Position numbers and translations under genes: made by a program. This document shows positions 7,313-40,372 of a stretch of 64,000 nucleotides of DNA, piece after piece (position 1 is the stretch's first letter; each line of letters opens with the position of its first letter). The stretch is from Candidatus Uhrbacteria bacterium (GTDB lineage: Bacteria > Patescibacteriota > Patescibacteriia > UBA9934). Under the pieces are notes generated by a model. That model saw nothing but the letters and a program-made list of their open reading frames with translations. It was not told the origin of the DNA and did not search any database. The stretch spans positions 4,051-68,050 of the forward strand of contig CALRAI010000001.1 in the NCBI GenBank assembly GCA_943350635.1, read 5' to 3'.

Positions 7313-7682
7313 CATGGCTACTCGCCGTCAACAGATTCGCACCACTGCAGAAATGCTCATCGTCGATTTCTTGCGGCAGCACGTGCCGCTCAACCAACAA
7401 CGCTCCGAATGGCGTTTCACATTCGCAGACATCGACGTGGCGTTTCATCGCTATTACCACGCAAGGAAAGACGCTCACAACGCTGCATGCGCGGCATGCA
7501 AAAGCGAGCATCACTGCGTGCTCGTGGACGCGCTCCAGGCGCTGTGCCCAAATCCCGTGAGCGGAGTTTCCATGATCTTCCGTGCCCACATCCTCGCGAT
7601 TGGCGAGTTCGACACCTTCACCGACTCCGGTACGCTCTTCCCCCCGGCCTTCGGCCCCTTCCGTCCGCCAGACGACTCGTAG
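7313..7682 (+). CDS. hypothetical protein (GC-rich insert)
   Basis: Only protein-like frame in the GC-rich block. The opposite-strand ORF is Arg-rich antisense-looking. No domains recognised. Confidence 0.25.
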
Positions 7683-7880
7683 AGACTGCGCGCCAACCGT
7701 CACCTGCCACGTCTTCAACGGAAGCCGTCGCGCAAGTGACGGTTTTCTGTTTGTGTCTGATTTGAGGGAGTGATGGATTGAAAAAGCGAAACGCACCCGG
7801 AGGCGGCACGTTTGCCGCGCGGGTGCGCAAGTTATCACTCAATGAACTGGACGGTGGACTGGTCGACGCACGACTGTTGG

Positions 7881-8360
7881 CTACGGTCGCTTGCTGATGA
7901 CGATCTCATTGCCCGTGATCTCGACGATGCACGTCGCCGGCCGGCAGGTCGAGTTGTCGTCGATCTCGAACTGCGACTGCGAGTCGATGCTGTCCTGGAT
8001 ACGGCAGTCGAGCAGCTGAGCCTGCTCGATGAGTGCGACCATCTTGGGGTCGGCCTTCGGCAGGTTAAAGTCCATCACGTGATAGGTTTCCTGGTTGTCA
8101 AACATCGACCCACCACGGCCGTAGATAGTGTACTGGGTGGTGGAGTTTCTTTTCCGATCCCAGATCGTTTTGTCGCGACAGTCGTACGCCTCAAGGAAAC
8201 CCTGCTCGGCATTTCCACCGCCGACGATGTTGCACGGCTTGGCGGCGTAGCCACAGTCGAGCTCGGACACCAAGCCGATGTGGAAGAGCTCAAGGTCTTC
8301 GCCAGGGGCGATTTCGCCAGCGCAGGCGGAGAGAAGCAGGAACGGAAGGACGAAACGCAT
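7881..8360 (-). CDS. hypothetical lipoprotein
   Basis: Signal peptide with lipobox (MRFVLPFLLLSAC). Cys-containing secreted domain. GC-rich relative to backbone. Confidence 0.5.
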   Translation of the reverse strand: MRFVLPFLLLSACAGEIAPGEDLELFHIGLVSELDCGYAAKPCNIVGGGNAEQGFLEAYDCRDKTIWDRKRNSTTQYTIYGRGGSMFDNQETYHVMDFNLPKADPKMVALIEQAQLLDCRIQDSIDSQSQFEIDDNSTCRPATCIVEITGNEIVISKRP

Positions 8361-8608
8361 GGTGGACTCCAGTGCATTAGCACAGGGGGCGGAAATGCCC
8401 GTCTATTGGCACCACTGTATAGTGATGACTATGGACGGACATCGCTCTTTCAGTCTTCATCGTAACTAGTAATGATAGCGCAAAAATGGGCTTTTGTCAA
8501 CCAGAAATATGAAGAAAAGCCAATAAATACAGATATTTTACTGGAAATCGCCTGTGTACAAGTTTTGGGGAATTTTTGTAAAAGATTCGACGTTCCTGGC
8601 GGTGAGAT

Positions 8609-8932
8609 ATGTTAGAATTTAGCAAATACATTATGGAACTTCTCTTGTGGGATATTTACGAAATTCAATCTCAGTCCTCGCTTCACGGCGTGATGCTTCG
8701 AGGAAGACTGAGGAAATTTGCGAATCAACAAAGTATAAATCTCCTAACAGAAAATGAAGAAAACGGTGCGAGTGTACGCTTTGCAGTCCTTGCAGAATCT
8801 GATCCAGCTATCGTGACTACTTTTATCACGTCACTTGTTCCCGACGCTCACATCGAACGCGTTCGTGAGAAGGTATCGAATCCTGTTCTCTCTAAACTGC
8901 AAGTGAACGTCGATGACCGATATACGATTTAA
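8609..8932 (+). CDS. hypothetical protein
   Basis: Isolated AT-rich ORF just left of the island junction. No motifs recognised. Confidence 0.25.
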   Translation: MLEFSKYIMELLLWDIYEIQSQSSLHGVMLRGRLRKFANQQSINLLTENEENGASVRFAVLAESDPAIVTTFITSLVPDAHIERVREKVSNPVLSKLQVNVDDRYTI

Positions 8933-9012
8933 ATAGTAATATACAAAGCTTGGGCAACCAGTGGGCAACGAGAAAGAGAGAACAATAAAAATATCCAACA
9001 ACTGTTGGATAT

Positions 9013-9042
9013 TTTTGGTGCGCCGAGCGGGGATCGAACCCG
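9013..9042. repeat. distal att direct repeat (30 bp copy of tRNA-Lys 3' end)
   Basis: TTTTGGTGCGCCGAGCGGGGATCGAACCCG is identical to 19984-20013, which includes the 3' 27 nt of tRNA-Lys. Confidence 0.75.
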
Positions 9043-9400
9043 ATGATGGCAATTTACGAAAGATGAGCAATAACAGGCAAAAACGCAGGAAAAGCCATTG
9101 GCTGTTGCTGTTTCTCAATTCTCATAGTTACACATTGTTACTCGACAAAATACACAATCCATCACTTTATGGGCAACGGGTGGGCAACACCTCCGGGGAG
9201 TGATGGAATTTTGGCTCATCTGATTCGATGCTATCAATGACGATCAGATGCGATCTGGATTATGGAATCCGTTTGTTTATTTTAATTTCTCAATTCTCCT
9301 TATTTCAGTGGATGGAGCCTCTCCTCAAGAAAAGGGCAGCATGCATATCGGGTGATATACTTTGCAGAAGGATTGGCCCATTTAATTACTAAATACCCAT

Positions 9401-10105
9401 ATGGGCGATATAGAAGTGAAATACTCCTCCAGAGGGAAACAACCCCTAACCGCACAGAACCTTAAAACGAAGGGGTGGTGGAGATTCGCGCAAGTTATTT
9501 TTGTACTTGGATCAATTTTGCTGTTTGCCTTGACCCTCCTCTTTGCTGGTGCCGCGATTAGTGAAACCACTCCTCTCGTTCCCAGTGAAAGCTCGATTAC
9601 TTGCAACAATGGCCAGGTTTTTAACCTGAAGAGCTTTGATGAAAGTCTTAACATATACACGTACGGCTTCAGTCCTGTAGATAGTAATGGTCGATTCACA
9701 GACTATTCCGATGACGCAACAGCAAAAATGTTCTGCACAGCGTTGAACCGTGATCGCTTCGAACTCTCTCCTTTACCGGAAGGAAGCTCAATAACACCCG
9801 CGCGCAAGGCTGAACTTGATGCCATCATAATCAAGCAGCTTCAGAGTCAAACGCAAGAAGAGTGGGCTGCAAACATGACGAAAAATTCCGTCAGAAAGGC
9901 TAGTTATTCAGACCTCGAGGATATTCACTCTCGTGAGACTAGTAAGCAAGGTGAGAACATGGGCTATTCTATTGACGCAAAAAAGGATTATTCTGAGGTA
10001 TTCGTTATACTAGGCTTCTTCGTTTTAGCGTTGATCATCGAAGCAGGGCTTTTGTTTGTAGTAAGAGGAATTGTTCGGTACACACTTATTAGTAAGTTCT
10101 TTTAG
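9401..10105 (+). CDS. hypothetical membrane protein (N- and C-terminal TM)
   Basis: Two hydrophobic helices flank a Ser/Thr-rich extracellular region. Confidence 0.4.
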   Translation: MGDIEVKYSSRGKQPLTAQNLKTKGWWRFAQVIFVLGSILLFALTLLFAGAAISETTPLVPSESSITCNNGQVFNLKSFDESLNIYTYGFSPVDSNGRFTDYSDDATAKMFCTALNRDRFELSPLPEGSSITPARKAELDAIIIKQLQSQTQEEWAANMTKNSVRKASYSDLEDIHSRETSKQGENMGYSIDAKKDYSEVFVILGFFVLALIIEAGLLFVVRGIVRYTLISKFF

Positions 10106-10251: not shown

Positions 10252-10842
10252 CTATGAACTTCTGTTCTGTTCCGATTCATTGAGTACAAAACTAGCCCAT
10301 TGCGCTTTCATTTCTTGTTCTAAGAAATAATGACATGACCCAAAATAGCCGCGACAATACTTTTCGGTCAACCGAAGAAACAGAGGAGCTTTTACCTCGA
10401 TCATGAAACGACGGGCTTCTGGCGAAAGACCCTTAGATTGACGGAGGTTATCAGTCAAATCAGCCAGTTTTATACGCCAAGCATCTTCATCGTCCGCTTC
10501 GATCAATTTCGCCGTCATCAGCATCCAGCGCTCAGTGGAGTTTTCTATATCGAGCGGATGAGTGCCGAGTGCCACAAAGTGAATGGTTCGGTCAGTGAAT
10601 CCCATATCTCTAAGTTCCTGAAAGGAAACACCTCCATCTTCGACGACATCATGGAGTAATGCAGCAAGAAACAAGTCATCGTCGCAATCGTCACAATGGT
10701 GGCACGAAATAACGAGATCTCTCACTCGAAAGGAATGCAGATAGTTCGGTTCGTCTGGTAAGCTTTTACGAGTACCCTGAATACGCTCGCGAACGAGCGT
10801 CTCTGCCCTCCCTTTCAATTCTAAATACTGTGTGAGTTCCAT
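10252..10842 (-). CDS. HD-domain small alarmone hydrolase-like protein (SpoT/Mesh1-type HD)
   Basis: HSFRVRD…AALLHDVVEDGG…FG matches the (p)ppGpp hydrolase HD motifs H…HD…D of RelA/SpoT. 196 aa with no synthetase domain. Confidence 0.55.
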   Translation of the reverse strand: MELTQYLELKGRAETLVRERIQGTRKSLPDEPNYLHSFRVRDLVISCHHCDDCDDDLFLAALLHDVVEDGGVSFQELRDMGFTDRTIHFVALGTHPLDIENSTERWMLMTAKLIEADDEDAWRIKLADLTDNLRQSKGLSPEARRFMIEVKAPLFLRLTEKYCRGYFGSCHYFLEQEMKAQWASFVLNESEQNRSS

Positions 10843-11134
10843 ACAAAATACGTGAAGAATAAACGCAAAAGCGATTGAGAGATATGACCCAGATTGCTCT
10901 GGATGAAATCTCCCAACCGCTTAATGCAGTCAGTTCTCACATCGCTTGTGGCTCTCAGCAGATTTCCCTGATTGCCTACCCTCTTGGAGGGAGTGATGTG
11001 GGTGTTCGTCTTTACGACGGACGCACCTCTTTGCTCTTACTTCTTCACTATAACTGAAAAATGGGGTTTGGTCAAAGCATCCCAGTAAGCTAGAGTGATG
11101 TTTCGCTAATTTTATTCAGAGACTTTGTACTGGA

Positions 11135-12583
11135 TTATTCAATGCTTCCAGATGGTAGCTTTGTAAGATCTGTATTCGTTATACCCAAACCAAGCTCGCG
11201 CATGATTGAATACGCAGCTGAACCATCTTTCATGTAAACGCGAGTGCAAGTAGCCGGATCAACGTACCAAGCCTCTCCATGTTGCTCTACCTGAAGAAGA
11301 ATTGTTCCCCTCACTTGATTCGCGATTTTATTAGTTAGGCACACGTTTGGAGCATCTTTAATATCGGCAGCTTCCTCGACCGAGGGAATTGTTTCTAGAT
11401 CTTTATTGGTAATACCAAGGCCGAAGGATCGCATCATGTTATACGCGGTGGTTCCATCTTTCATATAATAACGTAGCGAATCTGATGGATAGATGTACCA
11501 TGCCTCGCCATGCTCTTCTACCTGGAGCAATATTGATCCTGAGAGGCGCTCAACTAAAGCCGTATCTAACTTTTCTGGGTCATAAGCTCCTGCAAGATCT
11601 ATATCTGTTGACGATGAGGAATCTATCGATTCGGTGTCAGTAGTATCTGTACTGACAGTCGCTGATGGTGTCGGAATGGAATAACTATACGTCCAGTAAT
11701 AATAACTGCTTCTATTTCCGTAGAGGTCTACTGCAGAGACATTAAGATAGTAGGTTCCTGGGCCATAAAGGGTCGCGAGACTGCCATTTGTGGTTTGATA
11801 TGTTCCGTACGTATAGGGATCTTGAGCGCTTGTTCCGAGATAAACATAATAGCCTGCAACCCCGCTCGCGTCTGATACCCCCTGCCAAGTGAAAAAGGGA
11901 GTCGAATCAGTTCCTGACTGCCAAGAACCAAGAGTTGACGCTGATGAATCTGCATAAACAGAAGCCGTGGCACTCGAAAAATCGGGTGCAGTAATGTCGG
12001 AATATGTATATGAAGAAGATGTGCTAGTCGAGATTGAATCAGAACTCCAGACCCGACATTCATCGTCCGAGTCAAAAAGATAGATTGTGTCGGAAATACC
12101 ATCAAGCGAATAACCTCCAATATCAATATAAATGTATTTATTTTCGTATCGCCACATGCTTAAACATCCAATCCCATACTCTACAAGGTAGTCATAACCT
12201 GATGTATCTTCAACTAAAATTTGATCAGATCCGATATCACTGAGTATGAAATATTTTTTTAAGTTTAGGGAATCAACCGAATTCACCGTACAGGCCTTTG
12301 TATCAAACATACCTTGAACAAGAATCGTATTTCCATATCCCGGAGAATAATAGGTATCAATCCAAAATGTCTCTCCAGTAGAGAAGTCAGAACTTGAGCA
12401 ATCCCAGGAATAGCCGATTTTATAATAAGATCCGTAACCGTCAGCGATAACTAGATCGTTGTAGGAGCTGCTCAATACTACAAAACCCTTAAGATTAGAT
12501 GCGAAAACATTCTTAATAGGCGCCAATATTGTAACCAGAATGCAGACAACGACTATCTGTAACTTAAAATTATTCATATACAT
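11135..12583 (-). CDS. secreted repeat protein with two C-terminal ~50-aa tandem repeats
   Basis: Signal peptide. Ser/Thr/Tyr-rich FN3-like middle region. C-terminal repeats SILLQVEEHGEAWYIYP…LGITNKDL and TILLQVEQHGEAWYVDP…LGITNTDL. Confidence 0.55.
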   Translation of the reverse strand: MYMNNFKLQIVVVCILVTILAPIKNVFASNLKGFVVLSSSYNDLVIADGYGSYYKIGYSWDCSSSDFSTGETFWIDTYYSPGYGNTILVQGMFDTKACTVNSVDSLNLKKYFILSDIGSDQILVEDTSGYDYLVEYGIGCLSMWRYENKYIYIDIGGYSLDGISDTIYLFDSDDECRVWSSDSISTSTSSSYTYSDITAPDFSSATASVYADSSASTLGSWQSGTDSTPFFTWQGVSDASGVAGYYVYLGTSAQDPYTYGTYQTTNGSLATLYGPGTYYLNVSAVDLYGNRSSYYYWTYSYSIPTPSATVSTDTTDTESIDSSSSTDIDLAGAYDPEKLDTALVERLSGSILLQVEEHGEAWYIYPSDSLRYYMKDGTTAYNMMRSFGLGITNKDLETIPSVEEAADIKDAPNVCLTNKIANQVRGTILLQVEQHGEAWYVDPATCTRVYMKDGSAAYSIMRELGLGITNTDLTKLPSGSIE

Positions 12584-12976
12584 AATTTAAATCTCTAGTA
12601 ACTCTTATCCAAAGTTTTTTAACCAATCATGAAAGTCTCGAATGATGGGTTTTCGCTTTCCAAGCTGTATAAACAAATGATCCTGACGAGCATCTTCTTC
12701 CTTTTGTTTTTGATCCCTTTCTTCTACAGTTTTCCGATATTCGATTTCACCGCGCAATAAAGCACGTCTCTCGGAACGGCAATGACCAGGTTTTATATAA
12801 AGAGTGCGTAAAACTTCTCAGGAAAAGAAATTTTCACACTCACGACATCCTATTTCTTTTGGGATTTTTCCCTCAGAAAACCACATCTGTGATTCATCAA
12901 TCTCATCATTACAAGCCGGACAGAGATATGTTGCGACTTGGAAAATAACCATATATAGGCTGGCGTAATTGATCGT

Positions 12977-13231
12977 TTATAAATTGTTGAAAAATCTTAC
13001 AACGATTGAGCCAAGATGGCTTGCAATAACGAATGCAATAATCATGCTTCCAAATCCAACAATCAAAACTAGCGCACTTTTTAAAACATTTGGCTTCTCT
13101 CCCTCAATAACAAGTCCTTCTATTTGTTTTTCAGAAGTCGGTTTCGCTTCTACTCCACAAGATGAACAGAATCTTGCGTTATCTATAGTTTTCTCTCCAC
13201 AATTCCTACAAAACATATATTTTACAAGCAA
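12977..13231 (-). CDS. zinc-ribbon membrane protein (small)
   Basis: CRNCGEKTIDNARFCSSCG double CxxC motif followed by a TM helix. Confidence 0.45.
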   Translation of the reverse strand: MLVKYMFCRNCGEKTIDNARFCSSCGVEAKPTSEKQIEGLVIEGEKPNVLKSALVLIVGFGSMIIAFVIASHLGSIVVRFFNNL

Positions 13232-13758
13232 TCAGCTTTACTAAATGATGCAAAATAACTTTGTCCCGTTTCACTGACCACATATGAATATTCCATATTT
13301 ATATCTCGGTTCAAAAGACTTTTTGTGTCACTATTTTGACAGAGACTTGTTCCAAGATAATTTTTCAAATATGCGTTTGAAAGACTGCTCGTATCCGCGC
13401 CAGTAAGGGTGTAATGATAACGAATAGCCCCGGGCTCTGCTGTAATGTCAGTAAGTGTTGTTAATTCATCCGTATGATACGGCAATGGCATGCTAGCCTT
13501 TGTTTGCCTAACTGTCTCGCTAATGAGTTCAGCTTTTGATGTGTTGCTTATGGAAGACGAAGAGATTCCTTGTGTTAAATAACGACCTACGCCGATTGCC
13601 AATATAGAAACGATAACAGAAATTACGCTAATAAACGTGGATTTTCTTTTTGTTCTTTCGACAGAGATGGCGGTTGATCCAGTAACAACTTTTTCTCCAC
13701 ATTTATTACAGAATTTTGCACCATCCTCAAGTTTATTGCCGCATTTTTTGCAATTCAT
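13222..13758 (-). CDS. zinc-ribbon membrane protein with extracytoplasmic domain
   Basis: MNCKKCGNKLEDGAKFCNKCGEKV, then a TM helix and a ~110-aa outside domain. Overlaps its neighbours, so operon-like. Confidence 0.5.
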   Translation of the reverse strand: MNCKKCGNKLEDGAKFCNKCGEKVVTGSTAISVERTKRKSTFISVISVIVSILAIGVGRYLTQGISSSSISNTSKAELISETVRQTKASMPLPYHTDELTTLTDITAEPGAIRYHYTLTGADTSSLSNAYLKNYLGTSLCQNSDTKSLLNRDINMEYSYVVSETGQSYFASFSKADCL

Positions 13759-13767
13759 AAAATATTG

Positions 13768-14088
13768 TTAGTAATCAAATGTTTCTTCGCAAACATACAA
13801 TCCGTTAGAACTATCGGGTACTTTACAATTCTTTCCGCACTCAAAGTCGTCGCTCGAATTATTTCGTTGCTGTTTTAGATTTGTAGCCCAGGAAAGACAT
13901 GAGGCGCGATCATCAAATTGCGGACTGTAAATGTATTGGTCTGTGCAAGCCAAGCAGCCATCAGGATAATAAAAACCGAGCCACGTTTCTTTTTGGGAAA
14001 GACAGCCTGCGCCAGACAAAAGCAAGGTGAGAATGAAGAGGGGCACGATTAGCGATCTTTTCATACTACTTCGATATATAGCTTCCAA
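13768..14088 (-). CDS. small secreted Cys-rich protein
   Basis: Signal peptide and 6 Cys residues. 106 aa. Confidence 0.4.
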   Translation of the reverse strand: MEAIYRSSMKRSLIVPLFILTLLLSGAGCLSQKETWLGFYYPDGCLACTDQYIYSPQFDDRASCLSWATNLKQQRNNSSDDFECGKNCKVPDSSNGLYVCEETFDY

Positions 14089-14992
14089 TAGCGGACTGTA
14101 GGAATGCGACGGCCTGCACGATGACGAAAATAAGCACCGGATTAATATCGACGAATAAACTTATAAACCAAGATATCACGAAAGTGAGGAGGAGGGATTT
14201 TATGATAGTTTGCATCGTCCAGCCCCCGCTGTGCTCTACTTTTGGCTTCTCCCTCTGATCGAGCAAGAATTCCAGATGCTTCAGTATTTCCGAACTGTTT
14301 CTGAATTCAAATTGGGAAATTCCGCAAAACTCTTGAGAACCCTGCTCAAAGAGCAGATCGTCAAAATTCTTTTTTACAAAATCAGCCTTTTCTTCTCGTT
14401 CACTATCTGAAAGATCTTCAGTTTTCTTGAACCAAATATTCTTTCCGTATTCGCTTTCCACGATTTGTAAGTCTGAGTCTGTGGCGTCCTTCACTTTATC
14501 CTCTATTCTATTTAAACCCATCTTTATCCTTTCGACCGTCTGCCTTAAATACTTTCTATAATCCTCTCGCGAGAGAGAATCCGAATGAAGAGAAAGGATG
14601 AAAAAGATCTCAGCATAAGACACGGCTAGATTTAACTTTTGCCATTCGATCTCCTTATTCAATCGCTCGAGAAGTTCTTTGCGATGGTACTCGGAGGGTG
14701 CCTCCAAGATGGACTCTAGCACTACGCCGTCTTTCACTTCTTCCTTTAGGGGCGGCTCGATGGATTTGTATTTTAAGCGAACGAAGACCTCAATCGGGTT
14801 TGTGTTTATTTTGTATTCGTAAATCTCGTTTATATAAAAACAGTCGTCATTTATGCTCCTGTGAGAATCGAATTCTTTCCTTTCTGGATAAAAGGTTAGG
14901 GTCAATGAGCTCCAATCATCATCAATTGAAATAGTCCTGTCTTCATCCATGACTTCAATGTTTGGAATGCTCATATTTATTTTGCAGTGCAA
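14066..14992 (-). CDS. hypothetical protein with C-terminal membrane anchor
   Basis: Charged coiled-coil-rich soluble region with a double TM at the C-terminus. Overlaps the flanking genes. Confidence 0.45.
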   Translation of the reverse strand: MHCKINMSIPNIEVMDEDRTISIDDDWSSLTLTFYPERKEFDSHRSINDDCFYINEIYEYKINTNPIEVFVRLKYKSIEPPLKEEVKDGVVLESILEAPSEYHRKELLERLNKEIEWQKLNLAVSYAEIFFILSLHSDSLSREDYRKYLRQTVERIKMGLNRIEDKVKDATDSDLQIVESEYGKNIWFKKTEDLSDSEREEKADFVKKNFDDLLFEQGSQEFCGISQFEFRNSSEILKHLEFLLDQREKPKVEHSGGWTMQTIIKSLLLTFVISWFISLFVDINPVLIFVIVQAVAFLQSAIGSYISK

Positions 14993-15873
14993 TGCTCGCT
15001 TAAGTAGTCATTGTACTTTTCAATTTGCTTATTATAAACGTCTATTTTGATCCGAAGAATATTTTCATCAGCTTGGTATAATCTCAAATCACCATTATAT
15101 TTGTCGACGAGTGAATTGTGCATTTCTATTTCAAAATCATCCGTCGAATCATAAATGTCATTTTCTATTTGTTTACGGAAAATATTCAAGTCAGCATCCT
15201 TTTGATCAAGAGACTTTCTTTCCAAAGATAACTCGGTACGCACAGTTTCTATTGGGGCCAGAATATCGGATTGTTCTGCGAAATAATTCGTACAATTATA
15301 TTCTCCTACCGTTACCATATCGTCATTCAGAATAGGATTAGAATTCACGGAATCAGTGCTGATTCCCGATAGACCGCCACCGAAAGATATCAAAGCGATT
15401 GCATAAATAGCGTCGAACCAGAAAATGCGCAATTTGTTCGCGATCCAGATCAAGACGACTAAAGGAAATGCGAGATAGTATAGGGGGCTTCCCCCGTTTT
15501 TGATCGCATTTTTACTAGAGCTATGAATATGCTCCATATCGTGATCACTTGGAAAGGAATGCATTCCCACCGAGATCGCTAGCCAAAGCAAAAAATACCA
15601 AAGGCCGCTTCCTGAAATTGCATTAGCTGCGATGAAGCTCAAGGCTACTGTACCTATTGAGTTCACCAATAACGGTCCGACAGAGATCCAGAAAGTCTGC
15701 TTGTATGTCTTTGGTTCTTCGTGTGAAACGTATCCTGCTGGATTTCCAAATTGAAAATAAACGACTTTATGGACACGAACGCCAAGATGATCGCAGAATA
15801 TTTTATGCGCCCATTCATGAACAACCACACCCGGGAACGTCAATAAAGAAATGAGCCAGCCAGGTATAAACAT
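14977..15873 (-). CDS. membrane zincin-like protein (HExxH in first TM; DUF3267/M50-like) with C-terminal coiled coil
   Basis: VVVHEWAHKIF motif inside the N-terminal hydrophobic region. At least 4 TM helices. Asp/His-rich loop. Coiled-coil tail. Confidence 0.45.
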   Translation of the reverse strand: MFIPGWLISLLTFPGVVVHEWAHKIFCDHLGVRVHKVVYFQFGNPAGYVSHEEPKTYKQTFWISVGPLLVNSIGTVALSFIAANAISGSGLWYFLLWLAISVGMHSFPSDHDMEHIHSSSKNAIKNGGSPLYYLAFPLVVLIWIANKLRIFWFDAIYAIALISFGGGLSGISTDSVNSNPILNDDMVTVGEYNCTNYFAEQSDILAPIETVRTELSLERKSLDQKDADLNIFRKQIENDIYDSTDDFEIEMHNSLVDKYNGDLRLYQADENILRIKIDVYNKQIEKYNDYLSEHCTAK

Positions 15874-15901
15874 ATTTTATTAACCTTACAATAACAGAAA
15901 A

Positions 15902-16042
15902 CACAAAGCCCGCCGCTAGCCGACACCTTGCGGTGTCCATACCCCTTTCGAGATATGACCATACAAAGGAAGCTGAACGACGGGTTCAGTACTTTGTATG
16001 GGTTTACTGCCATACCTCACGGTTGATCCGAGAGGGTTAGGC
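15902..16042. ncRNA. conserved structured element, copy 1 (nested hairpin CCATACAAAG…CTGAACGACGGGTTCAG…CTTTGTATGG)
   Basis: About 140 nt, alignable to 40373-40516 with compensatory changes in the outer stem. Lies in a divergent intergenic region of the island. Strand and function unknown. Confidence 0.4.
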
Positions 16043-16098
16043 AAATTCAATTTTCGAACGTTGTTATTATGGAATTTTTCGGCTAACGTTGTCAAAGA

Positions 16099-17010
16099 GT
16101 GAGGTTTATCGAAAGCTGTTTCGCGAACAAAGAATGCGTATTTATGAAGAATGCAAAAATAGTAATTGATGATTATTCCATTAGCCTATACACATCTCAT
16201 CTTAAGAGAGGAAATTACCGTGTCGGGGAAGTGATGCAGATATTGCTCTTGAGAAGCGACTTTAATGATTTTATATTGCGGTTAGAGTTGAGTGGACTTA
16301 CCCAGGTGGTGCCAAGTTCCGAAAATGAAGACAGTTGGATACATAACGGCATAATTACGCATAAACGTGTCGATGGCTATCTAGCGATAATATTGCAAAC
16401 TGATTTCTTTAAAAATCGTACAGAAATTTGGTTAATGAACTTTACCTCCATCGCAAAAAGAATACTCATAGAGTCCTACGCACGAGGAAGTGCTATGAAA
16501 TTGAGTCACAATGCGGAAGAAAAAATTGTTATTTCAAGCGATGATATTAACTACCCGAATATTTTATATTCATTGATTGAGATAGATGACGGCTTTCGTA
16601 AGATTCTAGATACGAATAAATTTGAGCAGGAACCGGATATGATGCCCATTTTTATAGAGAATGGTCGATTTTTTGAAATCAGCATCAATGCTCAAGTTAC
16701 GAAACCAGAGCTTATAAGTTTTATCGAAAAAAACTGGAGTGAAATAGAAAGAGATGTAAGGGGACGAAATCCTTCAGAAAAGAAAGAGAGAGCATCAAGT
16801 TCTTCAAATTTCTTACGTGATATTAAAATACTTAATAAATATAATGATTTTAAGAATGAAGGTTTTAAAAATCCGGATGTAAAAGTATTTTCCTGGTTAT
16901 TAAAAGAGGATCAGATAGAAATTGAGCCGAATACTGTGCGAAAAATAGTATCGAATCTTAATAAATCAATAAGAATGTTAAATAGCGATTCTTTAAAGGA
17001 TAAAATCTGA
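16099..17010 (+). CDS. hypothetical protein
   Basis: 303-aa ORF with a GTG start (an ATG at 16144 is an alternative). No motif recognised. Confidence 0.45.
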   Translation: MRFIESCFANKECVFMKNAKIVIDDYSISLYTSHLKRGNYRVGEVMQILLLRSDFNDFILRLELSGLTQVVPSSENEDSWIHNGIITHKRVDGYLAIILQTDFFKNRTEIWLMNFTSIAKRILIESYARGSAMKLSHNAEEKIVISSDDINYPNILYSLIEIDDGFRKILDTNKFEQEPDMMPIFIENGRFFEISINAQVTKPELISFIEKNWSEIERDVRGRNPSEKKERASSSSNFLRDIKILNKYNDFKNEGFKNPDVKVFSWLLKEDQIEIEPNTVRKIVSNLNKSIRMLNSDSLKDKI

Positions 17011-17133: not shown

Positions 17134-17403
17134 TTGTTTATGCGTATGCAAGCAATATCGACAAATGACACGTTTCCTTCCCGCGATTGGGTACTTATCG
17201 CAACCCTCTCCTCCCTCGGCTTCCCGATTGAAGCCGTGGAGCAAGACTCACAGGCTCGGACAATCTTTCACATACAGCGCTCCGACAGCCTGGACGACGT
17301 TATACAGCGATTCTGGAGGCGTGAGCTGCGTGTTGAGCCTCAGGAGTTCAACCAGCACATGAAGCTCGTGAAGGCTCGCATGTATGACGCTAAGATTTTC
17401 TAA
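17134..17403 (+). CDS. hypothetical small protein
   Basis: 89-aa ORF preceded by the palindrome AAAAGTACT-N7-AGTACTTTT at 17096-17121. Confidence 0.35.
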   Translation: MFMRMQAISTNDTFPSRDWVLIATLSSLGFPIEAVEQDSQARTIFHIQRSDSLDDVIQRFWRRELRVEPQEFNQHMKLVKARMYDAKIF

Positions 17404-17427: not shown

Positions 17428-17979
17428 ATGGCGAGAAAAAGAATGCTTCACGCAAAGATCTGGGACAGCAATCAATTCAACTCATTAAAACCACTACTTC
17501 GTTTACTTTACATAGGTTTGGTCACTATCGCGGATGACTATGGCTGTTTTCGTGCAGAGGGCACGTTTCTCAGGCGAAAGCTGTTACATTCAGACAGGAT
17601 TAGCCCGGCACAAATTGATGCAATGTTGCAGAAAATTAACGAAGTTGGATTGATTGAATATCGTCAAACAGAATTCGGTTCCATCGGCATTCATCCGAAG
17701 TGGGACACGTATCAGAAGCTCCGTAAGGACATTGCTAGGTCTAGCGACTTTCCTGACCTCGACGTATACGCCATGGATCTGCCATGGCTACGTGACGTCA
17801 ACATAAGAGAAGACAAGATAAATAAAGAAAGCTCAGAATCAGGGGAAGAAAAGAGAATTGAAATTAGTGAAAGAGAACTTGCGCCGATCTTCTCCGGAAG
17901 AGAGCAGACAGAGCGGGCTCTGGCTGCATTCAAGAAGAAACAGAAAGAGAAACTGAATCCATTCTCTGATCTTCTATGA
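17428..17979 (+). CDS. hypothetical protein (possible winged-helix DNA-binding/replication-associated)
   Basis: ORF immediately upstream of the xis/int module. The assignment is speculative. Confidence 0.4.
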   Translation: MARKRMLHAKIWDSNQFNSLKPLLRLLYIGLVTIADDYGCFRAEGTFLRRKLLHSDRISPAQIDAMLQKINEVGLIEYRQTEFGSIGIHPKWDTYQKLRKDIARSSDFPDLDVYAMDLPWLRDVNIREDKINKESSESGEEKRIEISERELAPIFSGREQTERALAAFKKKQKEKLNPFSDLL

Positions 17980-18533
17980 GTAAAAACTCTTGTGACGATT
18001 ATCAGAAATTATCAGTGTATCGGCTTCGGGATTTTGGATGCTTTTCATACTCTTCTTCGCATGATCTCTCCTGGGGGAAAGGTGAAAATCGGAGCAGTAT
18101 CGGCCTCACCACCTTCCTTGAAGACGATCCTATAAGAATGAGGCTCAGCTATATCTACTCCAGCCGATACAGTGATCGAAAGCTATCGGTGGACGATGAT
18201 GTTCTACTATCAAAAACTCAATGTCATTTCGGTGGCGTTCGTTGGTGGATGCATTGCCCGGTGCTTCGTAATAGCCTGCCATGTAATCGACGTACCGCAA
18301 TTCTTTTCATGGTTGGTGGCCGATTTGGATGCAGAGATTGCCATGATCTTACCTATGAAAGCCGAAAGATCAGGCCATCGCTACGGCCGTATCTCTCACT
18401 TCTTATACCAATGACCCTCGATCAAAAGTATGCACGTTCCCGATACTGGAAAGGGCGAAAAACCAAGCGAACTCGAAGAATAGATGCAAAGTGGGATGCG
18501 TGGGAAGAACCAACGGGATTAATGAACTTCTAA
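17976..18533 (+). CDS. hypothetical Cys-rich (zinc-binding?) protein
   Basis: CHFGGVRWWMHCP…CNRR…CRDCHD cysteine/histidine cluster. Overlaps the upstream gene by 4 nt. Confidence 0.4.
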   Translation: MSKNSCDDYQKLSVYRLRDFGCFSYSSSHDLSWGKGENRSSIGLTTFLEDDPIRMRLSYIYSSRYSDRKLSVDDDVLLSKTQCHFGGVRWWMHCPVLRNSLPCNRRTAILFMVGGRFGCRDCHDLTYESRKIRPSLRPYLSLLIPMTLDQKYARSRYWKGRKTKRTRRIDAKWDAWEEPTGLMNF

Positions 18534-18614: not shown

Positions 18615-18863
18615 ATGACCAAAGATGAAAATCTCGCTTCTGAGAGTAGTTTTCTGAATCCACTTGAACTCGCTGAACTGCTACGACTCTCGCGTGCTAG
18701 CGTGTACCGCCTCGTGGAAAGGCGAAAGATCAGCTTCCATCGATTACCGAGAGGATTGCGGTTTAGTAGAAGAGATATTGATGGCTACTTACAGAAATGC
18801 AGGGTTGAATCTTTGGAGGATGTATATGAGCGCGAGAAAAATAAGACAAAGCTGGTGGGTTGA
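18615..18863 (+). CDS. xis: excisionase/AlpA-family HTH DNA-binding protein
   Basis: LELAELLRLSRASVYRLVERRKISFHRLPRGLRFSRRDIDGYL is a typical Xis/AlpA HTH_17. Directly precedes the integrase. Confidence 0.6.
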   Translation: MTKDENLASESSFLNPLELAELLRLSRASVYRLVERRKISFHRLPRGLRFSRRDIDGYLQKCRVESLEDVYEREKNKTKLVG

Positions 18864-19953
18864 TTTCCGCTTCGGATTTCAACGCTACCGTATACGCAGT
18901 CCAGAATGCAGTCGTGCTGGAGCGCAAGCATATGAAGCAACGCTTCGAAAGATGCTCGCCGCTGGGGAGAGTATTGATGAAGGTCAGAAAAAGTTAGTGA
19001 AGTTTCAAGACTTTGCCGCCGATTGGTTCCGGGTGTATGTGATGAACAATAACAAGTTATCAGTACAGCTAACACAACGAGGCATACTCGATATCCATCT
19101 ACTCCCACACTTCGGTAAGTACGGACTCCCGGAGATCACATCACAGGTGGTTGAACGTTATAAGGCAAAGAAGACCAACGAAGGACTTGCGCCAAAGTCG
19201 ATTAACAATCAACTTGGAGTACTCCGACGATGCTTGCAGATTGCTATGGAATGGGGCTCGCTTGATAAGCTCCCTATGATCAAGATGCTCAAAACTCCAC
19301 CACCTGTCGTTATATTCCTCAACGAGGCTGAATGTAAGGCTCTCTTAGCGGATCATATGGAACCAATGGCGAATCTGATGATTCTGACTGCGTTGCGCAC
19401 TGGGATGCGTTTGGGTGAGCTGTGTGGCCTATCGTGGGAGGATATCGACTTCAAGAGCGGGATTCTTACCGTAAGGCATTCGTTCGTTCGGGGTGAAATG
19501 AACTCCCCCAAAAGTAATAAGATCCGACATATTCCGATAACAGCCGATTTAACCGAAGCTTTGAAGAAGAGCGCAAAACCCTGTGGCCTTGTCTTCCACA
19601 TCGATAAGAAGCCGATCACGGGCTATGCAGGCTCGGAAATACTCGGTCGTGCATGTATTCGTACGGGTATAAAACACATCGGTTGGCACAAACTCCGTCA
19701 TACCTTCGCTTCACAGCTTGTGGCGCGTGGAGCGAACCTGAGGGCTGTTCAAGAGCTCCTTGGGCACTCAACGATTCAAATGACGGAACGATACGTGCAT
19801 CTCGCTCCTTCGTCGCTCCGACAGGCGATGTCAGTATTGGAAGAAACACCAAAGGGAGAAAGTTTGGGCAACCCGTGGGCAACGGCACTTATTCAACAAG
19901 TACGTTATGAAGCGTTACCAAAGCTCAAAATGACCATGAATGTTGGGAAATAA
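18826..19953 (+). CDS. int: tyrosine-type site-specific integrase
   Basis: N-terminal SAM-like domain. Catalytic R…HKLRHTFAS…LGHSTIQMTERYVHL (R-H-R-Y). Adjacent to tRNA-Lys. Start taken at MSARKIRQSWW. Confidence 0.9.
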   Translation: MSARKIRQSWWVDFRFGFQRYRIRSPECSRAGAQAYEATLRKMLAAGESIDEGQKKLVKFQDFAADWFRVYVMNNNKLSVQLTQRGILDIHLLPHFGKYGLPEITSQVVERYKAKKTNEGLAPKSINNQLGVLRRCLQIAMEWGSLDKLPMIKMLKTPPPVVIFLNEAECKALLADHMEPMANLMILTALRTGMRLGELCGLSWEDIDFKSGILTVRHSFVRGEMNSPKSNKIRHIPITADLTEALKKSAKPCGLVFHIDKKPITGYAGSEILGRACIRTGIKHIGWHKLRHTFASQLVARGANLRAVQELLGHSTIQMTERYVHLAPSSLRQAMSVLEETPKGESLGNPWATALIQQVRYEALPKLKMTMNVGK

Positions 19954-19986
19954 AAAGATTCCGATGCCATTAACATCAGAATCTTT

Positions 19987-20061
19987 TGGTGCGCCGAGCG
20001 GGGATCGAACCCGCGACCACGAGCTTAAAAGGCTCTTGCTCTACCACTGAGCTACCAGCGC
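19987..20061 (-). tRNA. tRNA-Lys (anticodon TTT)
   Basis: Folded by hand as a cloverleaf: acceptor GCGCTGG/TCGGCGC, anticodon loop CTTTTAA, T-arm GGTTCGATCC, encoded CCA. Confidence 0.85.
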
Positions 20062-29565: not shown

Positions 29566-30477
29566 ATGCGAACATTCTTCCGCATTATTCGGTTCGCGAT
29601 GCAGAGTATGCTACGGAATTTTTGGTTGTCGTTTGTAACAGTTTCCGTGTTTGTCCTTACATTGATCACGGTGAACGCGGTGATTATTTTGAACGTGCTC
29701 GCGAATGCATCGGTGAAAAGTGTGGAAGGTCGCGTGCAAGTAACGGTATATTTCACGTCCGACGCTTCGGTAGATACAGTAAAGAGTACACAAAGCTACT
29801 TGCTCGGATTATCCCAGGTGAAAGACGTTTCGTACGTTACGGCGGAGGACGCGTTGATAGCGTTCAAGGAAACGCACAAAAGCGATCCCGTCATTCTTGG
29901 GGCGTTGGACGAAGTGGATGGGAATCCGCTCGGTCAGGCGCTCAAGATTCGTGCATACAATGCCGCAGACTTTCCGTTTATTTTAGAGGCGTTGGAAACT
30001 CCAGAGTACGCGCCGTTTATTAAGGACAAAAATTACAACAACTACGAATCGGCGCTGAAGGTGTTGGGAAATTTCTCGGAAAAGATCCGTATCGGCTTTT
30101 TGGTACTTGCGTTGTTCTTTGGATTTATTGCCATGCTCATCGTCTTCAATACCATTCGCGTAGCCATTTACGTTCATCGTGAGGAAATTGGTGTGATGAA
30201 GCTTGTGGGTGCCAACGACTGGTTTATTCGCGGGCCATTTTTGTTGGAGTCGATATTTTACGCATTCATCGCCACGGGAATCATGGCAGGAATTATTGCC
30301 ACAACGCTGCGCTTTGCGAATCCGTACATCGTAGCCTTCTTCCAGGGTGTGGACGTAGATTTGGTGGCATACTACTCCACCAACGCGTTGCCAATGTTCG
30401 GTGCTCAATTTGGCATTCTTGCGTTCCTTGGGCTTGCAACTACAGCCTTTGCCATGCGCCGGTACTTGAGAGTGTAA
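29566..30477 (+). CDS. ftsX: cell division permease FtsX
   Basis: 4 TM helices with a large periplasmic loop between TM1 and TM2. Lies 3 nt after ftsE. Confidence 0.85.
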   Translation: MRTFFRIIRFAMQSMLRNFWLSFVTVSVFVLTLITVNAVIILNVLANASVKSVEGRVQVTVYFTSDASVDTVKSTQSYLLGLSQVKDVSYVTAEDALIAFKETHKSDPVILGALDEVDGNPLGQALKIRAYNAADFPFILEALETPEYAPFIKDKNYNNYESALKVLGNFSEKIRIGFLVLALFFGFIAMLIVFNTIRVAIYVHREEIGVMKLVGANDWFIRGPFLLESIFYAFIATGIMAGIIATTLRFANPYIVAFFQGVDVDLVAYYSTNALPMFGAQFGILAFLGLATTAFAMRRYLRV

Positions 30478-30546
30478 AGAGCCTGATGCTTTGAGCGTGT
30501 TGGGCGTTACGAAGATTGATGGGTTCGGGTGTCTCGAATGTGCTCG

Positions 30547-30590
30547 TGTAAGACAATGTAAGACACTGACTTACACAAGATTGTAAGCAC
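30547..30590. promoter_or_regulatory. iteron/operator-like array of TGTAAG(A/C) half-sites
   Basis: TGTAAGACA (x2, 10-bp spacing), inverted CTTACA, then TTGTAAGCA. Immediately upstream of the GC-rich insert. Confidence 0.35.
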
Positions 30591-30668
30591 CCCCTCACTC
30601 CCGCTCAACCCTTCAAAAGAATCAGTTTCTGTGCTACCTTCGTTCCGCCAATATCGGCAGGAGTTCCC

Positions 30669-31289
30669 ATGATTCGCGACATTCAACTCATCGTTCTCGA
30701 CGGTCAACCTGGTGGCGGGAAGGACTTTTTCCTTCAAATGCTGGAGGCGGATCCGTGGTTCATGCGGAACGCCGTCATCGAAACGGAAGCCGCGGCGCTA
30801 CTGTACACCGCCCACAAGGTGCAGCCGGGGGAGTTCGGCACCGTTTCCCAGGACACGATCGACGCGTTTCAGAACGCCATTGCGAGCCTGTGCATGTTCA
30901 AGCGCTCGCTTGCCGTGGACCGTGCAGTGCGCGACGGCAAGAAGCTCGTGGTGTTCAACCGCTTCATACCGAGTGGTGCGGCGTATCTGCAGTGGGGGAT
31001 TGTGGATCTGATGGCAATCACGAATTTGTCCGAGGTCGAGATGAACAGCGGCATCGACCACGTGATCTGCCCTGGCCCGCCGCCGGAGGAGCACTACGTC
31101 ACCAACGAATATCGGTTCGAGACGTATGCAGAAGCGTGCGTGCTCGGTGCTCGGGCTCGTCAGGCGTACATCGACTTGGGCTTCGTACCAGGCACCACAC
31201 TGCACGACATCCCCGGCGGCGACGACTTCGACGCCAAGTGCGCGCTGTTCATGGCCACGATCCGCCAACTCACCGGTGCCGAGCACTAG
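30669..31289 (+). CDS. P-loop protein (nucleotide kinase-like), GC-rich foreign gene
   Basis: LIVLDGQPGGGKDF Walker-A-like motif ending in GKD, as in phage dNMP kinases. About 65% GC versus roughly 50% backbone. Confidence 0.4.
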   Translation: MIRDIQLIVLDGQPGGGKDFFLQMLEADPWFMRNAVIETEAAALLYTAHKVQPGEFGTVSQDTIDAFQNAIASLCMFKRSLAVDRAVRDGKKLVVFNRFIPSGAAYLQWGIVDLMAITNLSEVEMNSGIDHVICPGPPPEEHYVTNEYRFETYAEACVLGARARQAYIDLGFVPGTTLHDIPGGDDFDAKCALFMATIRQLTGAEH

Positions 31290-31333
31290 CCACGATCGGC
31301 AATCAGCTCAGCACAACACCCACGAAAACACGA

Positions 31334-31367
31334 CGCCCTGCCAACTCTTTCGAGCTGACAGGGCGTT
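31334..31367. terminator. GC-rich hairpin terminator (bidirectional)
   Basis: CGCCCTG-N17-CAGGGCG followed by TTT. Lies between convergent genes. Confidence 0.5.
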
Positions 31368-31403
31368 TGCGTGCGTACTGCGGTCACCGTGTCGAACAGT
31401 GAG

Positions 31404-32318
31404 CTACTTCTTGATCTTGGCCATGGCCGTCTCGCACGCGGCGATGAACGGCAGCATGTCCTCCTTCTTGAAGTAGTAGCTGTACTGGGTCGCGAGCTCG
31501 ACCATGCGGTCGACGCTCGACCAGGTCTTCCGAATGCCGACCACGTCTCGGTGGAGCCGTGTGACGACGCCGGGGCACAGGTTGCGGATGCGGGCGATGA
31601 ACGCCTGCTCTTCCGCGCGCCGTGCATCCGCCGCGATCTCCCATTCGTTCTTCGGCGCATTGCTGTGCTTCGGAACGTACTGGATCGTCTCCACCGGCTT
31701 GGGGGCCGGAACGCGCTGGATCATCGGCGGGGCGATCACGATCGGGGCCACGGCCATCGCACGGAGCTGCTCCAGGGACACGCCCTGTCCGGGCTTGCGA
31801 CGGGAGCTCGGGGCATCGATCTTGCGATCGACGACCACGGGCTTCGGAGCGGCGTAGCGTTGCAGCCACGCGAGGCGGTCGGCTTCGTTGGCCTTCCGCA
31901 CGTCCTCGAGCCAACGGAGGTTCTCTTCCACGCGAGCGGCTTCGGCAGCGGCTTCGGCACGCTCGTTCTCCAGACGCATCGCCTCGGCCCTCGCTGCGGC
32001 GGCGCGACGCTGCTCGGCGGCCTTGCGCGCGGCCTCGATGGCCACGGCAGGATCCGGCTTGACCACCACCGTCTTGGCGACGATGACGACGGGCGCGATG
32101 ATGTCGTTGGAGGGGCGGATGCGCCGCTTGGGCTGCGCGACCGGTTCGGGCCGCTTGGCCTCAACCTCGACGGCGATCTGGTCCTCGCGCCGCCAGACGG
32201 TGGGCGTGCGGCCGTTGTAGCCGGTGTCGAGGGTCGAGACGGCGCCGCGGGTGGCGCTGAGGCGGTGGCCGATGAGGTTGAGAAACTGGTCTTCGATGCG
32301 ATTGGCGGAAGCGGTCAT
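31404..32318 (-). CDS. hypothetical Ala/Arg/Glu-rich coiled-coil protein (GC-rich insert)
   Basis: The long minus ORF is the most protein-like of several overlapping GC-rich frames. Start chosen at MTASANRIEDQ. Confidence 0.35.
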   Translation of the reverse strand: MTASANRIEDQFLNLIGHRLSATRGAVSTLDTGYNGRTPTVWRREDQIAVEVEAKRPEPVAQPKRRIRPSNDIIAPVVIVAKTVVVKPDPAVAIEAARKAAEQRRAAAARAEAMRLENERAEAAAEAARVEENLRWLEDVRKANEADRLAWLQRYAAPKPVVVDRKIDAPSSRRKPGQGVSLEQLRAMAVAPIVIAPPMIQRVPAPKPVETIQYVPKHSNAPKNEWEIAADARRAEEQAFIARIRNLCPGVVTRLHRDVVGIRKTWSSVDRMVELATQYSYYFKKEDMLPFIAACETAMAKIKK

Positions 32319-32467
32319 GTGAAGATCTCCGGGGATTGGGGAAGCGAACGGGGGTGGTGAACAAAGAGCAATCAGTAACAAAATATGATAGCACAATTTG
32401 TGCCTTTTGTAAAGGGGAATGTACCGGTAAAATAGCGAATATTAGCGAAAAAAGATGAAGATTTTCC

Positions 32468-36574: not shown

Positions 36575-36622
36575 ATTTTCAACAGAAATGATATCCTGAT
36601 ACGTACTATGGAGCCGCGCCCT

Positions 36623-36667
<45 letters not shown>

Positions 36668-36708
36668 CCGGAAGCGCGTCGATTCTCCAGCGCGTCAAAG
36701 AGGGATAT

Positions 36709-37032
36709 TTGGTTTGGATGAACATTGCGCCGCATATTGCAAAGGGTGCGCGTTTTACGATTGGCGCCAGGATTGAAAGTAAGTTTCTCGACCTGTTGGA
36801 GTTGAGTTACGCCGCCTATTTTACCGACAAAGAAAAGAAGGTTGCAAAGATTGCCGAGTGTGTCTTCGTGCTCGATACGCTCAAGTTTCTCATCACCACA
36901 GCATGGGAAGGAAGACTGATAGCCAATAAGCAGTGCGAGGACGTTGCCAAAAAGCTGGACGAGATCGGCAAGATGTTCGGGGGCTGGAAGAAGAATCTCG
37001 AAAACCCTGAACGAAAAAACCGCGCCATGTAA
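36709..37032 (+). CDS. Avd-like four-helix-bundle protein (accessory variability determinant / 23S rRNA IVS protein family)
   Basis: …KFLDLLELSYAAY…LKFLITTAWEGRLI…EDVAKKLDEIGKMFGGW resembles the C-terminal two-thirds of TIGR02436-type proteins. TTG start in the ORF track (an ATG lies at 36718). Opposite strand to RT, TR and target. Confidence 0.45.
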   Translation: MVWMNIAPHIAKGARFTIGARIESKFLDLLELSYAAYFTDKEKKVAKIAECVFVLDTLKFLITTAWEGRLIANKQCEDVAKKLDEIGKMFGGWKKNLENPERKNRAM

Positions 37033-37046
37033 GCGCGGAATCAAGC

Positions 37047-37183
37047 ACTTTCGAAGACGGAAGACGAACTCATTGTTCGCATTCCACTTGTTCGTCGGCT
37101 TCGCCCAATTGTTGTTGAGCCACGACCCATCGTCATTGCGTTCCACGTTGAAGACGTTCGGGTTGCCGTCCGAGTCGGATTGC
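37047..37183 (-). repeat. DGR template repeat (TR)
   Basis: About 135 nt that aligns to 37507-37640. Every one of the ~17 mismatches is an A in TR (coding strand) versus C/G/T/A-change in VR. AAC/AAT-rich (NNNWAKPTNKWNANNEF). Confidence 0.85.
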
Positions 37184-40313: not shown

Positions 40314-40372
40314 ACGAATATGAATGTTAATAATAAGCGAACTTTCGAGTGATGCTGGGTGAGGCTTTATAG

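Follow-up and report, generated by a model that had tools for sequence, protein, structure and literature searches.

The stretch of DNA analysed here (the window, 64,000 nt of contig CALRAI010000001.1) comes from a Candidatus Uhrbacteria bacterium, a member of the Patescibacteria or candidate phyla radiation (CPR). Between positions 10252 and 15873 it holds eight minus-strand open reading frames (ORFs), g1 to g8, which a preliminary description had read as one packed cargo operon on a mobile element, possibly a novel defence or anti-defence module. All eight ORFs lie where they had been placed. Two further features, absent from that description, are a LOOT RNA (15922–16043, minus strand) upstream of g1 and a structured leader upstream of g8. 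The genes and predicted features from one border of the element to the other are as follows (TM, transmembrane).

9013–9042: attL core, a 30-nt exact copy of the tRNA-Lys 3′ end (direct-repeat family D3, 100 % identical to 19984–20013)
9401–10105, plus strand: gL_234, two-TM protein, convergent with g8 (36 % identity over 219 aa to a 306-aa protein of locus L004)
10252–10842, minus strand: g8, 196-aa HD-domain hydrolase of the small alarmone hydrolase (SAH) or Mesh1 type
10843–11046, minus strand: structured 5′ leader of g8, ~190 nt
11047–11075, minus strand: promoter-like site TTGACC-17-TATAGT of the g8 unit (10/12 matches)
11135–12583, minus strand: g7, 482-aa exported protein with an N-terminal hydrophobic segment
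12605–12952, minus strand: g6*, 115-codon frame with one in-frame TGA (12818–12820), given as its read-through translation
12977–13231, minus strand: g5, 84-aa (79 from ATG) zinc-ribbon single-pass membrane protein (Zn_Ribbon_1, 28.2 bits against a cut-off of 25; TM segment 52–70)
13222–13758, minus strand: g4, 178-aa zinc-ribbon single-pass membrane protein (Zn_Ribbon_1, 31.0 bits against 25; TM segment 40–58)
13768–14088, minus strand: g3, 106-aa Cys-rich exported protein with seven Cys and an N-terminal hydrophobic segment
14066–14992, minus strand: g2, uncharacterised family, likely start ATG at 14974
14977–15873, minus strand: g1, 298-aa putative polytopic membrane zincin (DUF3267, HEWAH) with a ~130-aa C-terminal tail
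15897–16043, minus strand: LOOT RNA (LOOT1; Rfam model 15922–16043) with its conserved 3′ tail GCUAGCGGCGGGCUUUGUG, the predicted 5′ leader of g1 to g7
16066–16095, minus strand: sigma-70-type promoter TTGACA-18-CATAAT (11/12 matches), ~22 nt upstream of the LOOT 5′ end
16099–17010, plus strand: gR_303, divergently transcribed backbone gene (homologues equally placed in L004 and L023, 28–30 % identity)
17134–17403, plus strand: DUF5659 backbone gene (Pfam DUF5659, 8.7e-8)
17428–17979, plus strand: replication-initiator-like backbone gene (phrog_1408 replication initiation, 9e-14)
17976–18533, plus strand: p185, Cys-rich 185-aa backbone protein
18664–19953, plus strand: tyrosine integrase abutting tRNA-Lys (Phage_integrase, 2.8e-33)
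19984–20061, minus strand: tRNA-Lys(UUU) (19987–20061) with the attR core (19984–20013)

It is probable, at roughly 0.6 for the reading as a whole, that positions 10252 to 15873 are the accessory (cargo) half of a ~11-kb integrative element in tRNA-Lys of a Patescibacteria genome, and that this cargo is a mosaic of independently mobile genes and no single eight-gene system, arranged in two units: g1 to g7 led by LOOT, and g8 controlled by its own leader. The cluster is in itself an ordinary mosaic of integrative-element accessory genes, a familiar kind. What is new is the predicted control, by an orphan Rfam RNA as the fixed leader of a variable slot and by an undescribed leader tied to one enzyme family.

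Evidence from the borders bears out the mobile-element location that had been claimed. The 30-nt direct repeat TTTTGGTGCGCCGAGCGGGGATCGAACCCG occurs exactly at 9013–9042 and 19984–20013, the second copy being the 3′ end of tRNA-Lys(UUU), so that a tRNA-3′-end repeat stands at both borders and the integrase adjoins the tRNA, as is characteristic of a tRNA-integrating element with a tyrosine recombinase. The GC content is 0.37–0.45 inside the element versus ~0.50 outside, and three public assemblies contain this element in the same chromosomal setting. Among loci gathered for comparison (L numbers), homologues of the backbone genes (DUF5659, the replication-initiator-like gene and p185) are found upstream of LOOT in five locus groups, L019, L026, L032, L011 and L004. 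Family searches with gR_303 (Pfam, PADLOC and others) returned no match, nor did the DNA of the whole region match GenBank phages. The named homologues of g1, g7 and g8 are all from Patescibacteria (Magasanikbacteria, Parcubacteria, Uhrbacteria and Taylorbacteria).

A repeat of the form GGGCAAC-N-GTGGGCAAC is present in three copies (8945–8970, 9164–9189 and 19859–19884) near both att cores; these may be arm-type sites of the integrase. One copy lies outside attL, within a low-GC stretch (~8470–9012) possibly left over from an earlier tandem element.

The division into two units is based on spacing and on the leaders. Tight packing had been described for all eight genes. This stands for g1 to g6, where spacing runs from −23 to +24 nt by the start codon chosen (with less overlap from ATG starts), and g1 to g7 are contiguous once g6* is counted as a single frame. 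It does not extend to g8, which is separated from g7 by 292 nt and preceded by a promoter-like site and a leader of its own. The GC content of g8 is also higher, 0.457 versus 0.34–0.42.

At the head of the first unit, LOOT1 matches RF03000 with 91.5 bits (gathering score 46.4), over the full length of the model (1–121 of 121) and with all of its helices. Only 48 nt separate the end of LOOT1 from the g1 ATG; a scan of this interval for promoter-like sites found none, and the hexamers of the promoter upstream of LOOT1 are identical in the sister element L004. By this geometry, co-transcription of LOOT with the operon is well supported. LOOT precedes g1 in L004 as well, but in L011 it precedes another operon.

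Beyond the Rfam model, a 3′ extension, GCURGCGGNGGGCUUUGUG, is conserved in LOOT, as seen first in a four-locus alignment and later in 19 unique loci. A search with the extension pattern gave five loci in species genomes, assigned to Patescibacteria, Saccharibacteria, Gribaldobacteria and one labelled Gammaproteobacteria, all five of which were confirmed by Rfam, and 18 loci in metagenomes; an IMG/VR scan with the LOOT tail pattern was empty. Past the conserved tail a same-strand ATG ORF begins within 31–81 nt in every unique locus with enough downstream sequence (19/19). Hydrophobic segments are present in 15 of these 19 first products, and three of the 19 are zinc-ribbon membrane proteins. 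Elsewhere the cargo after LOOT includes a membrane-anchored SNase, N6/N4 DNA methylases (one fused to Mrr), an OLD-family ATPase-nuclease, DUF4352 and OB-fold membrane proteins and a diversity-generating retroelement (DGR). These loci point to LOOT as a cis-acting leader for variable cargo.

A possible output of this leader is seen at the start codon. In 8/18 loci, a 10–11-nt segment at or beside the start codon pairs fully with the 3′ strand of the LOOT long hairpin; the segment is a copy of the hairpin's 5′ strand. Five distinct hairpin sequences occur, each matched by its own leader, and L019 has a sixth, with an 8/9 match. At L018 and at LOOT2 (WIN-LOOT2, the second copy in the window) 9/11 positions are identical and the remaining pairs are G-U; pairing at LOOT2 is thereby 11/11. 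A rough chance expectation is ~0.005 per locus. These copies were found by direct strand matching, RNAduplex over the whole leader being uninformative (long looped duplexes). Such three-way covariation indicates a putative strand-exchange switch over the ribosome-binding site.

Zinc-ribbon membrane proteins are the first gene after LOOT in L018, L027 and L036, and are also encoded by g4 and g5 in the window operon; they are the sole gene type that recurs across LOOT-led cargo. In L006, a 350-nt gap (7650–8001) precedes a g1 homologue of 50 % identity and gives no LOOT match at the gathering score. Two other explanations for LOOT were considered. A DNA recombination site (attC-like) was rejected, the att site being the tRNA and LOOT having GNRA tetraloops typical of RNA, and an intrinsic terminator at the LOOT1 tail was set aside, its 5-bp hairpin being weak and not conserved in other copies. 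A literature search for LOOT gave only its listing in the discovery paper and one structure-prediction paper.

In the second unit, g8 had been described as an HD-domain small alarmone hydrolase, and this is supported by residues and relatives, the substrate being predicted. Its best solved relative is Drosophila Mesh1 (PDB 3nqw, E=3.3e-6), with H36, H64-D65, E68-D69, D128 and N132 of g8 aligned to the metal-binding and ED-motif residues (H..HD..ED..D..N). It also matches TIGR00691 (spoT_relA, 6e-8) and phrog_990 (1.3e-15). g8 is a single domain, without a synthetase domain. About 100 homologues occur in Patescibacteria at 50–81 % identity, many of which carry a precomputed PF13328. Among GenBank phages the only similarity is ~32 % identity over 60 % of the length, to phosphohydrolases of jumbo Klebsiella and Serratia phages. 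Stand-alone phage SAHs neutralise all tested toxic small alarmone synthetases (toxSAS), and SAHs are present in 90 prophage-like regions (PMC7229694). Neither neighbour of g8 (g7, gL_234) matches RelA_SpoT, there being no adjacent small alarmone synthetase toxin gene, and no synthetase toxin gene was seen in the neighbourhoods of the g8 homologues in L039, L042, L043, L046 and L049.

The leader of g8 is conserved in six of six loci with a g8 homologue, that is, in the window and in five loci with different neighbours. The homologue stands beside a large serine recombinase in L042, beside HTH_17, a methylase and DUF3800 in L039, beside type I HsdR and a DEAD helicase in L043, and beside MazG and a Schlafen-like helicase in L046. 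The promoter-like site is kept in L039 (TTGACC..TATAGT) and more loosely in L046 (TTGACT..TATACT). The predicted parts of the leader, from its 5′ end, are a small upstream hairpin (~11004–11022), an aptamer-like three-way-junction domain (~10937–11002), a long hairpin (~10869–10922) and then a U-tract (~10852–10868), the last two terminator-like. RNAalifold on the six loci gave 42 pairs, 15 of them with compensatory changes; 97.2 % of cells are paired, against 35–44 % in slid controls, and none of 500 shuffles reached the observed number of covarying pairs. Domain 1 is a long stem around a three-way junction with invariant GGGUAGGCAAUCAGGGAAAUCUGC..AGCC, and domain 2 is the long hairpin followed by the U-tract in all six loci. 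In the six-locus alignment, the terminator's 5′ strand contains AGAUUUC, the complement of GAAAUCU in domain 1, and this possible pairing suggests an antiterminator.

Based on these features, the g8 leader has the anatomy of a transcription-terminating riboswitch and is a candidate for one. Against Rfam 15 (4227 families) nothing relevant was found for it even at E<=10, nor anything for the L039 and L042 leaders at E<=0.01. In all sequence searched the motif occurs upstream of g8 homologues only, and IMG/VR scans with two g8-leader patterns were empty. It is possible that the leader instead binds a protein or a tRNA.

Comparison of neighbourhoods bears on whether the eight genes form one system. 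In about ten neighbourhoods of g1, g7 and g8 homologues, at most one gene was shared with the window, and the full set was found nowhere else. The sister element (L004/L005/L023) keeps p185 (77 %), DUF5659 (93 %), the divergent ~300-aa gene, LOOT and g1 (78–84 %); after g1 it has a gL_234-related protein and then unrelated genes, with nothing like g2 to g8. The segment homologous to gL_234 thus comes after the g1 homologue there. L011, another sister element, keeps DUF5659, the divergent gene and LOOT, followed by an operon encoding proteins of 161, 84, 243, 521 (a g7 homologue), 279 and 141 aa. In L006, the 50 % identical g1 homologue is in an element with a serine recombinase and a PrimPol/D5 primase and has a DnaJ-domain protein after it, another g1 homologue is alone and adjoins a tRNA, and the full-length g7 homologues have unrelated neighbours. 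PADLOC-DB 2.0 assigned none of ten proteins to a family at E<=0.1, in agreement with the statement that no nameable defence system is matched. The proposal of one eight-gene module is not sustained, given this lack of co-occurrence within ~10 neighbourhoods, the outcome that the preliminary description had itself named as refuting it, and the separate transcription unit predicted for g8. Context alone lends plausibility to a defence or anti-defence character: in other elements the slot behind LOOT carries methylases, an OLD-family nuclease and a DGR, and phage SAHs neutralise toxSAS (PMC7229694).

Six of the seven products of g1 to g7 are membrane-anchored or exported. The description of g1 as a polytopic membrane protein with HExxH is confirmed: it scores 34.2 bits against Pfam DUF3267 (PF11667, 'putative zincin peptidase'; cut-off 27.1), has three to four hydrophobic segments, and carries HEWAH at residues 19–23 (H19-E20-x-x-H23), unchanged across 17 homologues, in which the motifs GYVxHE and FPSxxD are likewise invariant. 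By Pfam score and HExxH it is a putative membrane zincin peptidase. No phage protein matched g1, and most of its homologues are stand-alone ~170-aa zincin domains (CPR). For g2, which had been called a TM-anchored coiled coil, the membrane anchoring holds, with two C-terminal TM helices in the model (AF2, pLDDT 89.8), and the coiled coil is replaced by an N-terminal beta-meander and a helical domain. The g2 family has 102 representatives at E<=1e-3, with no match in Pfam or among PDB sequences.

The small Cys-rich secreted protein (g3) is as described and has a weak homologue (35 % identity, E=1e-5) in L014, two genes past a g7 homologue. Likewise, g4 and g5 are zinc-ribbon single-pass proteins, each with CxxC-N10-CxxC and a score above the Zn_Ribbon_1 (PF13240) cut-off; the C-terminal domain of g4 (~120 aa) is predicted to be extracellular. 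What had been called a frameshifted third zinc-ribbon ORF is a single frame of 44 codons, the TGA and 70 more codons, ending 21 nt before g7. Its N-terminal 44 aa contain CPAC...CREC, and g6 has no match to the Zn_ribbon Pfam families. The sequence with the TGA is identical in other assemblies of the element; g6* could be a nonsense-mutated gene, or read through or recoded. A code in which TGA is a sense codon was rejected on the basis of long table-11 ORFs throughout the window. The secreted g7 with its two GEAWY repeats stands as described. It consists of an N-terminal all-beta domain (~30–185), a variable middle, a Ser/Thr-rich linker and the two ~65-aa repeats (~340–480), both with HGEAWY. 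In CPR the repeat pair is found fused to S1C/S8 proteases and to CAP, SH3 and PBP domains (at least 2308 matches); full-length homologues of g7 are few, at 37–40 % identity.

In the mechanism proposed for the first unit, the promoter at 16095–16066 would transcribe LOOT as the 5′ leader of the packed g1 to g7, with LOOT as the fixed head of a slot, the cargo of which differs between elements of the family. The duplicate of a hairpin strand over the ribosome-binding site, seen in about half of the related loci, would allow the RNA, through strand exchange, to control translation of the first gene. The envelope proteins might then alter the surface of the carrier cell, excluding incoming phages or elements or changing attachment. 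In the second unit, g8 would be under its promoter-like site and a riboswitch-like attenuator leader ending in a terminator hairpin, and gene and leader would travel together between CPR mobile elements and chromosomal sites. g8 may degrade (p)ppGpp or (pp)pApp in the carrier, for example in escape from alarmone-based growth arrest, and would be switched on only once the leader senses its signal; for this step the literature offers support only through the analogy with phage SAHs acting against toxSAS (PMC7229694).

A bolder joint proposal, tentative and rather doubtful at present, is that the g8 leader is a new riboswitch class and that LOOT is a portable translation-gating platform of Patescibacteria mobile elements, working by strand exchange. 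On this proposal, the signal read by the g8 leader may be an alarmone, for instance (p)ppGpp or (pp)pApp, and the leader would induce the enzyme that degrades it.

Several points weigh against the two-unit mosaic reading. Promoters, terminator and operon limits are all predicted from sequence. The co-occurrence test rests on about ten neighbourhoods and is no census. The surface function of the envelope proteins is pure inference: the g2 model gave no specific fold match in a fold search, and the g7 model, the middle third of which is unreliable, gave nothing below E=0.07 against the PDB (Foldseek). The LOOT loci were gathered with one sequence pattern and therefore sample one subfamily. Within that sample 15/20 copies have the tail folded into an extra hairpin, of which LOOT1 has a weak version. 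No strand copy is present at the LOOT1 ribosome-binding site (8/10 with wobble pairs, within chance). Given both, the regulatory output at the g1 operon is therefore drawn from relatives only. Rfam types LOOT as an sRNA gene ('Gene; sRNA'). For g8, the match to Pfam HD_4 is below the cut-off (23.5 versus 27.2 bits), and Mesh1 also acts on NADPH, a point that bears on an alarmone as the substrate. Finally, in L049 (3001–3645) a g8 homologue of 63 % identity with the same leader is flanked by tgt and queA/queH within a chromosomal queuosine cluster, a context unlike the mobile-element edges of the other g8 homologues.

This last context is among the grounds for regarding g8 as a CPR housekeeping HD phosphohydrolase for another nucleotide, with a leader that senses that metabolite and an incidental location in the element. 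Homologues 55–81 % identical across several CPR lineages, the sub-threshold HD_4 score and the weak similarity to the hydrolase domains of long RelA/SpoT homologues (E ~1e-3) fit such a role. It is nevertheless unlikely, since Mesh1 is the closest relative of solved structure and every metal-binding and ED-motif residue aligns with it, since TIGR00691 scores 6e-8, and since five of the six contexts are mobile-element edges or defence-type neighbourhoods.

Less likely again is that LOOT is a trans-acting sRNA gene that lies beside the operon by chance, g1 to g7 being expressed independently. The Rfam type and the missing strand copy at LOOT1 would agree with this, as would the U-rich end of the conserved tail (GGGCUUUGUGUUUU), which follows the weak 5-bp hairpin and was flagged as terminator-like; that hairpin is, however, not conserved in other LOOT copies. 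Moreover, the U-run of LOOT1 is only ~24 nt from the g1 ATG with no promoter-like site in between, and both the co-oriented ORF 31–81 nt downstream in all 19 loci and the covariation of leader segments with the LOOT hairpin (8/18 loci) speak against an independent sRNA gene.

That g1 to g7, with or without g8, form a coherent envelope system of a membrane protease and partner sensors, acting as a superinfection-exclusion or abortive-infection module, is the most improbable of these explanations: the tight packing (−23 to +24 nt) behind a common leader, the six envelope proteins among seven, the mobile-element location, the defence-type genes in LOOT-led slots elsewhere, the zinc-ribbon membrane proteins right after LOOT in three loci and the weak g3 homologue near a g7 homologue speak for it, but the set is in no second locus, the nearest sister element shares g1 only, other g1 and g7 homologues have unrelated neighbours, PADLOC is null, g6 contains a nonsense codon, and g8 forms a unit apart, distributed in its own way.

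Elsewhere in the window, the second LOOT copy (LOOT2, 40395–40517, minus strand, 77.7 bits) heads a DGR cassette (35621–40517, minus strand), the features of which are listed here.

39834–40313: TM protein with a tRNA_anti-like OB domain
37483–39744: 753-aa target protein
~37020–37185: template repeat, the differences of which from the variable region (37483–37640) are all at template adenines
36709–37032, plus strand: bAvd-like gene
35621–36574: reverse transcriptase

On the other side of LOOT2 are a ParB-methylase gene (41461–42825) and tRNA-Gln (43493–43566). At ~30000–33000 the GC content is 0.58, versus ~0.50 in the surrounding sequence. Long ORFs overlap there on both strands, and Pfam gives a weak AAA_28 match only.

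Patescibacteria, which account for much of bacterial diversity, have hardly been cultured, and very few of their regulators are known. LOOT, an orphan since 2017, gains a testable role as a structured RNA at the head of variable mobile-element cargo, and a leader paired one-to-one with an alarmone-hydrolase-type gene is a concrete riboswitch candidate, the ligand of which would reveal the purpose of these hydrolases in bacteria with a little-known stringent-response machinery. The genetic tools under construction for Patescibacteria could use either RNA as a native expression switch, and riboswitches have been named as promising for such tools (PMC11665869).

In comparison with known systems, the element resembles the moron or cargo slots of prophages, satellites and integrative elements in having a conserved backbone (integrase, replication-like gene, DUF5659) and a variable region at a fixed position. 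Defence hotspots at fixed positions in phages and satellites are a similar case. The present slot differs in being headed by a structured RNA (LOOT), beyond a promoter, and in having Patescibacteria as hosts. Within this cargo, g1 is like the DUF3267 membrane zincins in the HExxH of its first membrane-proximal segment and in GYVxHE and FPSxxD, and differs by the ~130-aa C-terminal tail with two conserved Cys, which a minority of homologues have; to our knowledge, no member of this family has a tested function. With phage and prophage SAHs (PbcSpo, PaSpo) and Drosophila and human Mesh1, g8 shares a single HD domain of ~190 aa with H..HD..ED..D..N, and like PbcSpo and PaSpo it is carried by a mobile element. 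It differs from the phage SAHs in that no synthetase toxin is adjacent and a structured leader is always upstream, its activity being predicted.

Both copies in the window are alike to the LOOT RNA RF03000 (Weinberg et al., 2017; PMC5737381), at 91.5 and 77.7 bits. Unlike the sRNA typing in Rfam, the present loci always have a co-oriented ORF within 31–81 nt; they also add the 3′ extension, usually an extra hairpin outside the Rfam model, and often a strand copy at the ribosome-binding site. The g8 leader is like terminating riboswitches in its covarying multi-helix domain, in a terminator 5′ strand able to pair with a segment of domain 1, and in standing always upstream of one gene family. 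Its functional analogue would be the ppGpp riboswitch (ykkC subtype 2a), although the g8 leader matches ykkC in neither sequence nor structure.

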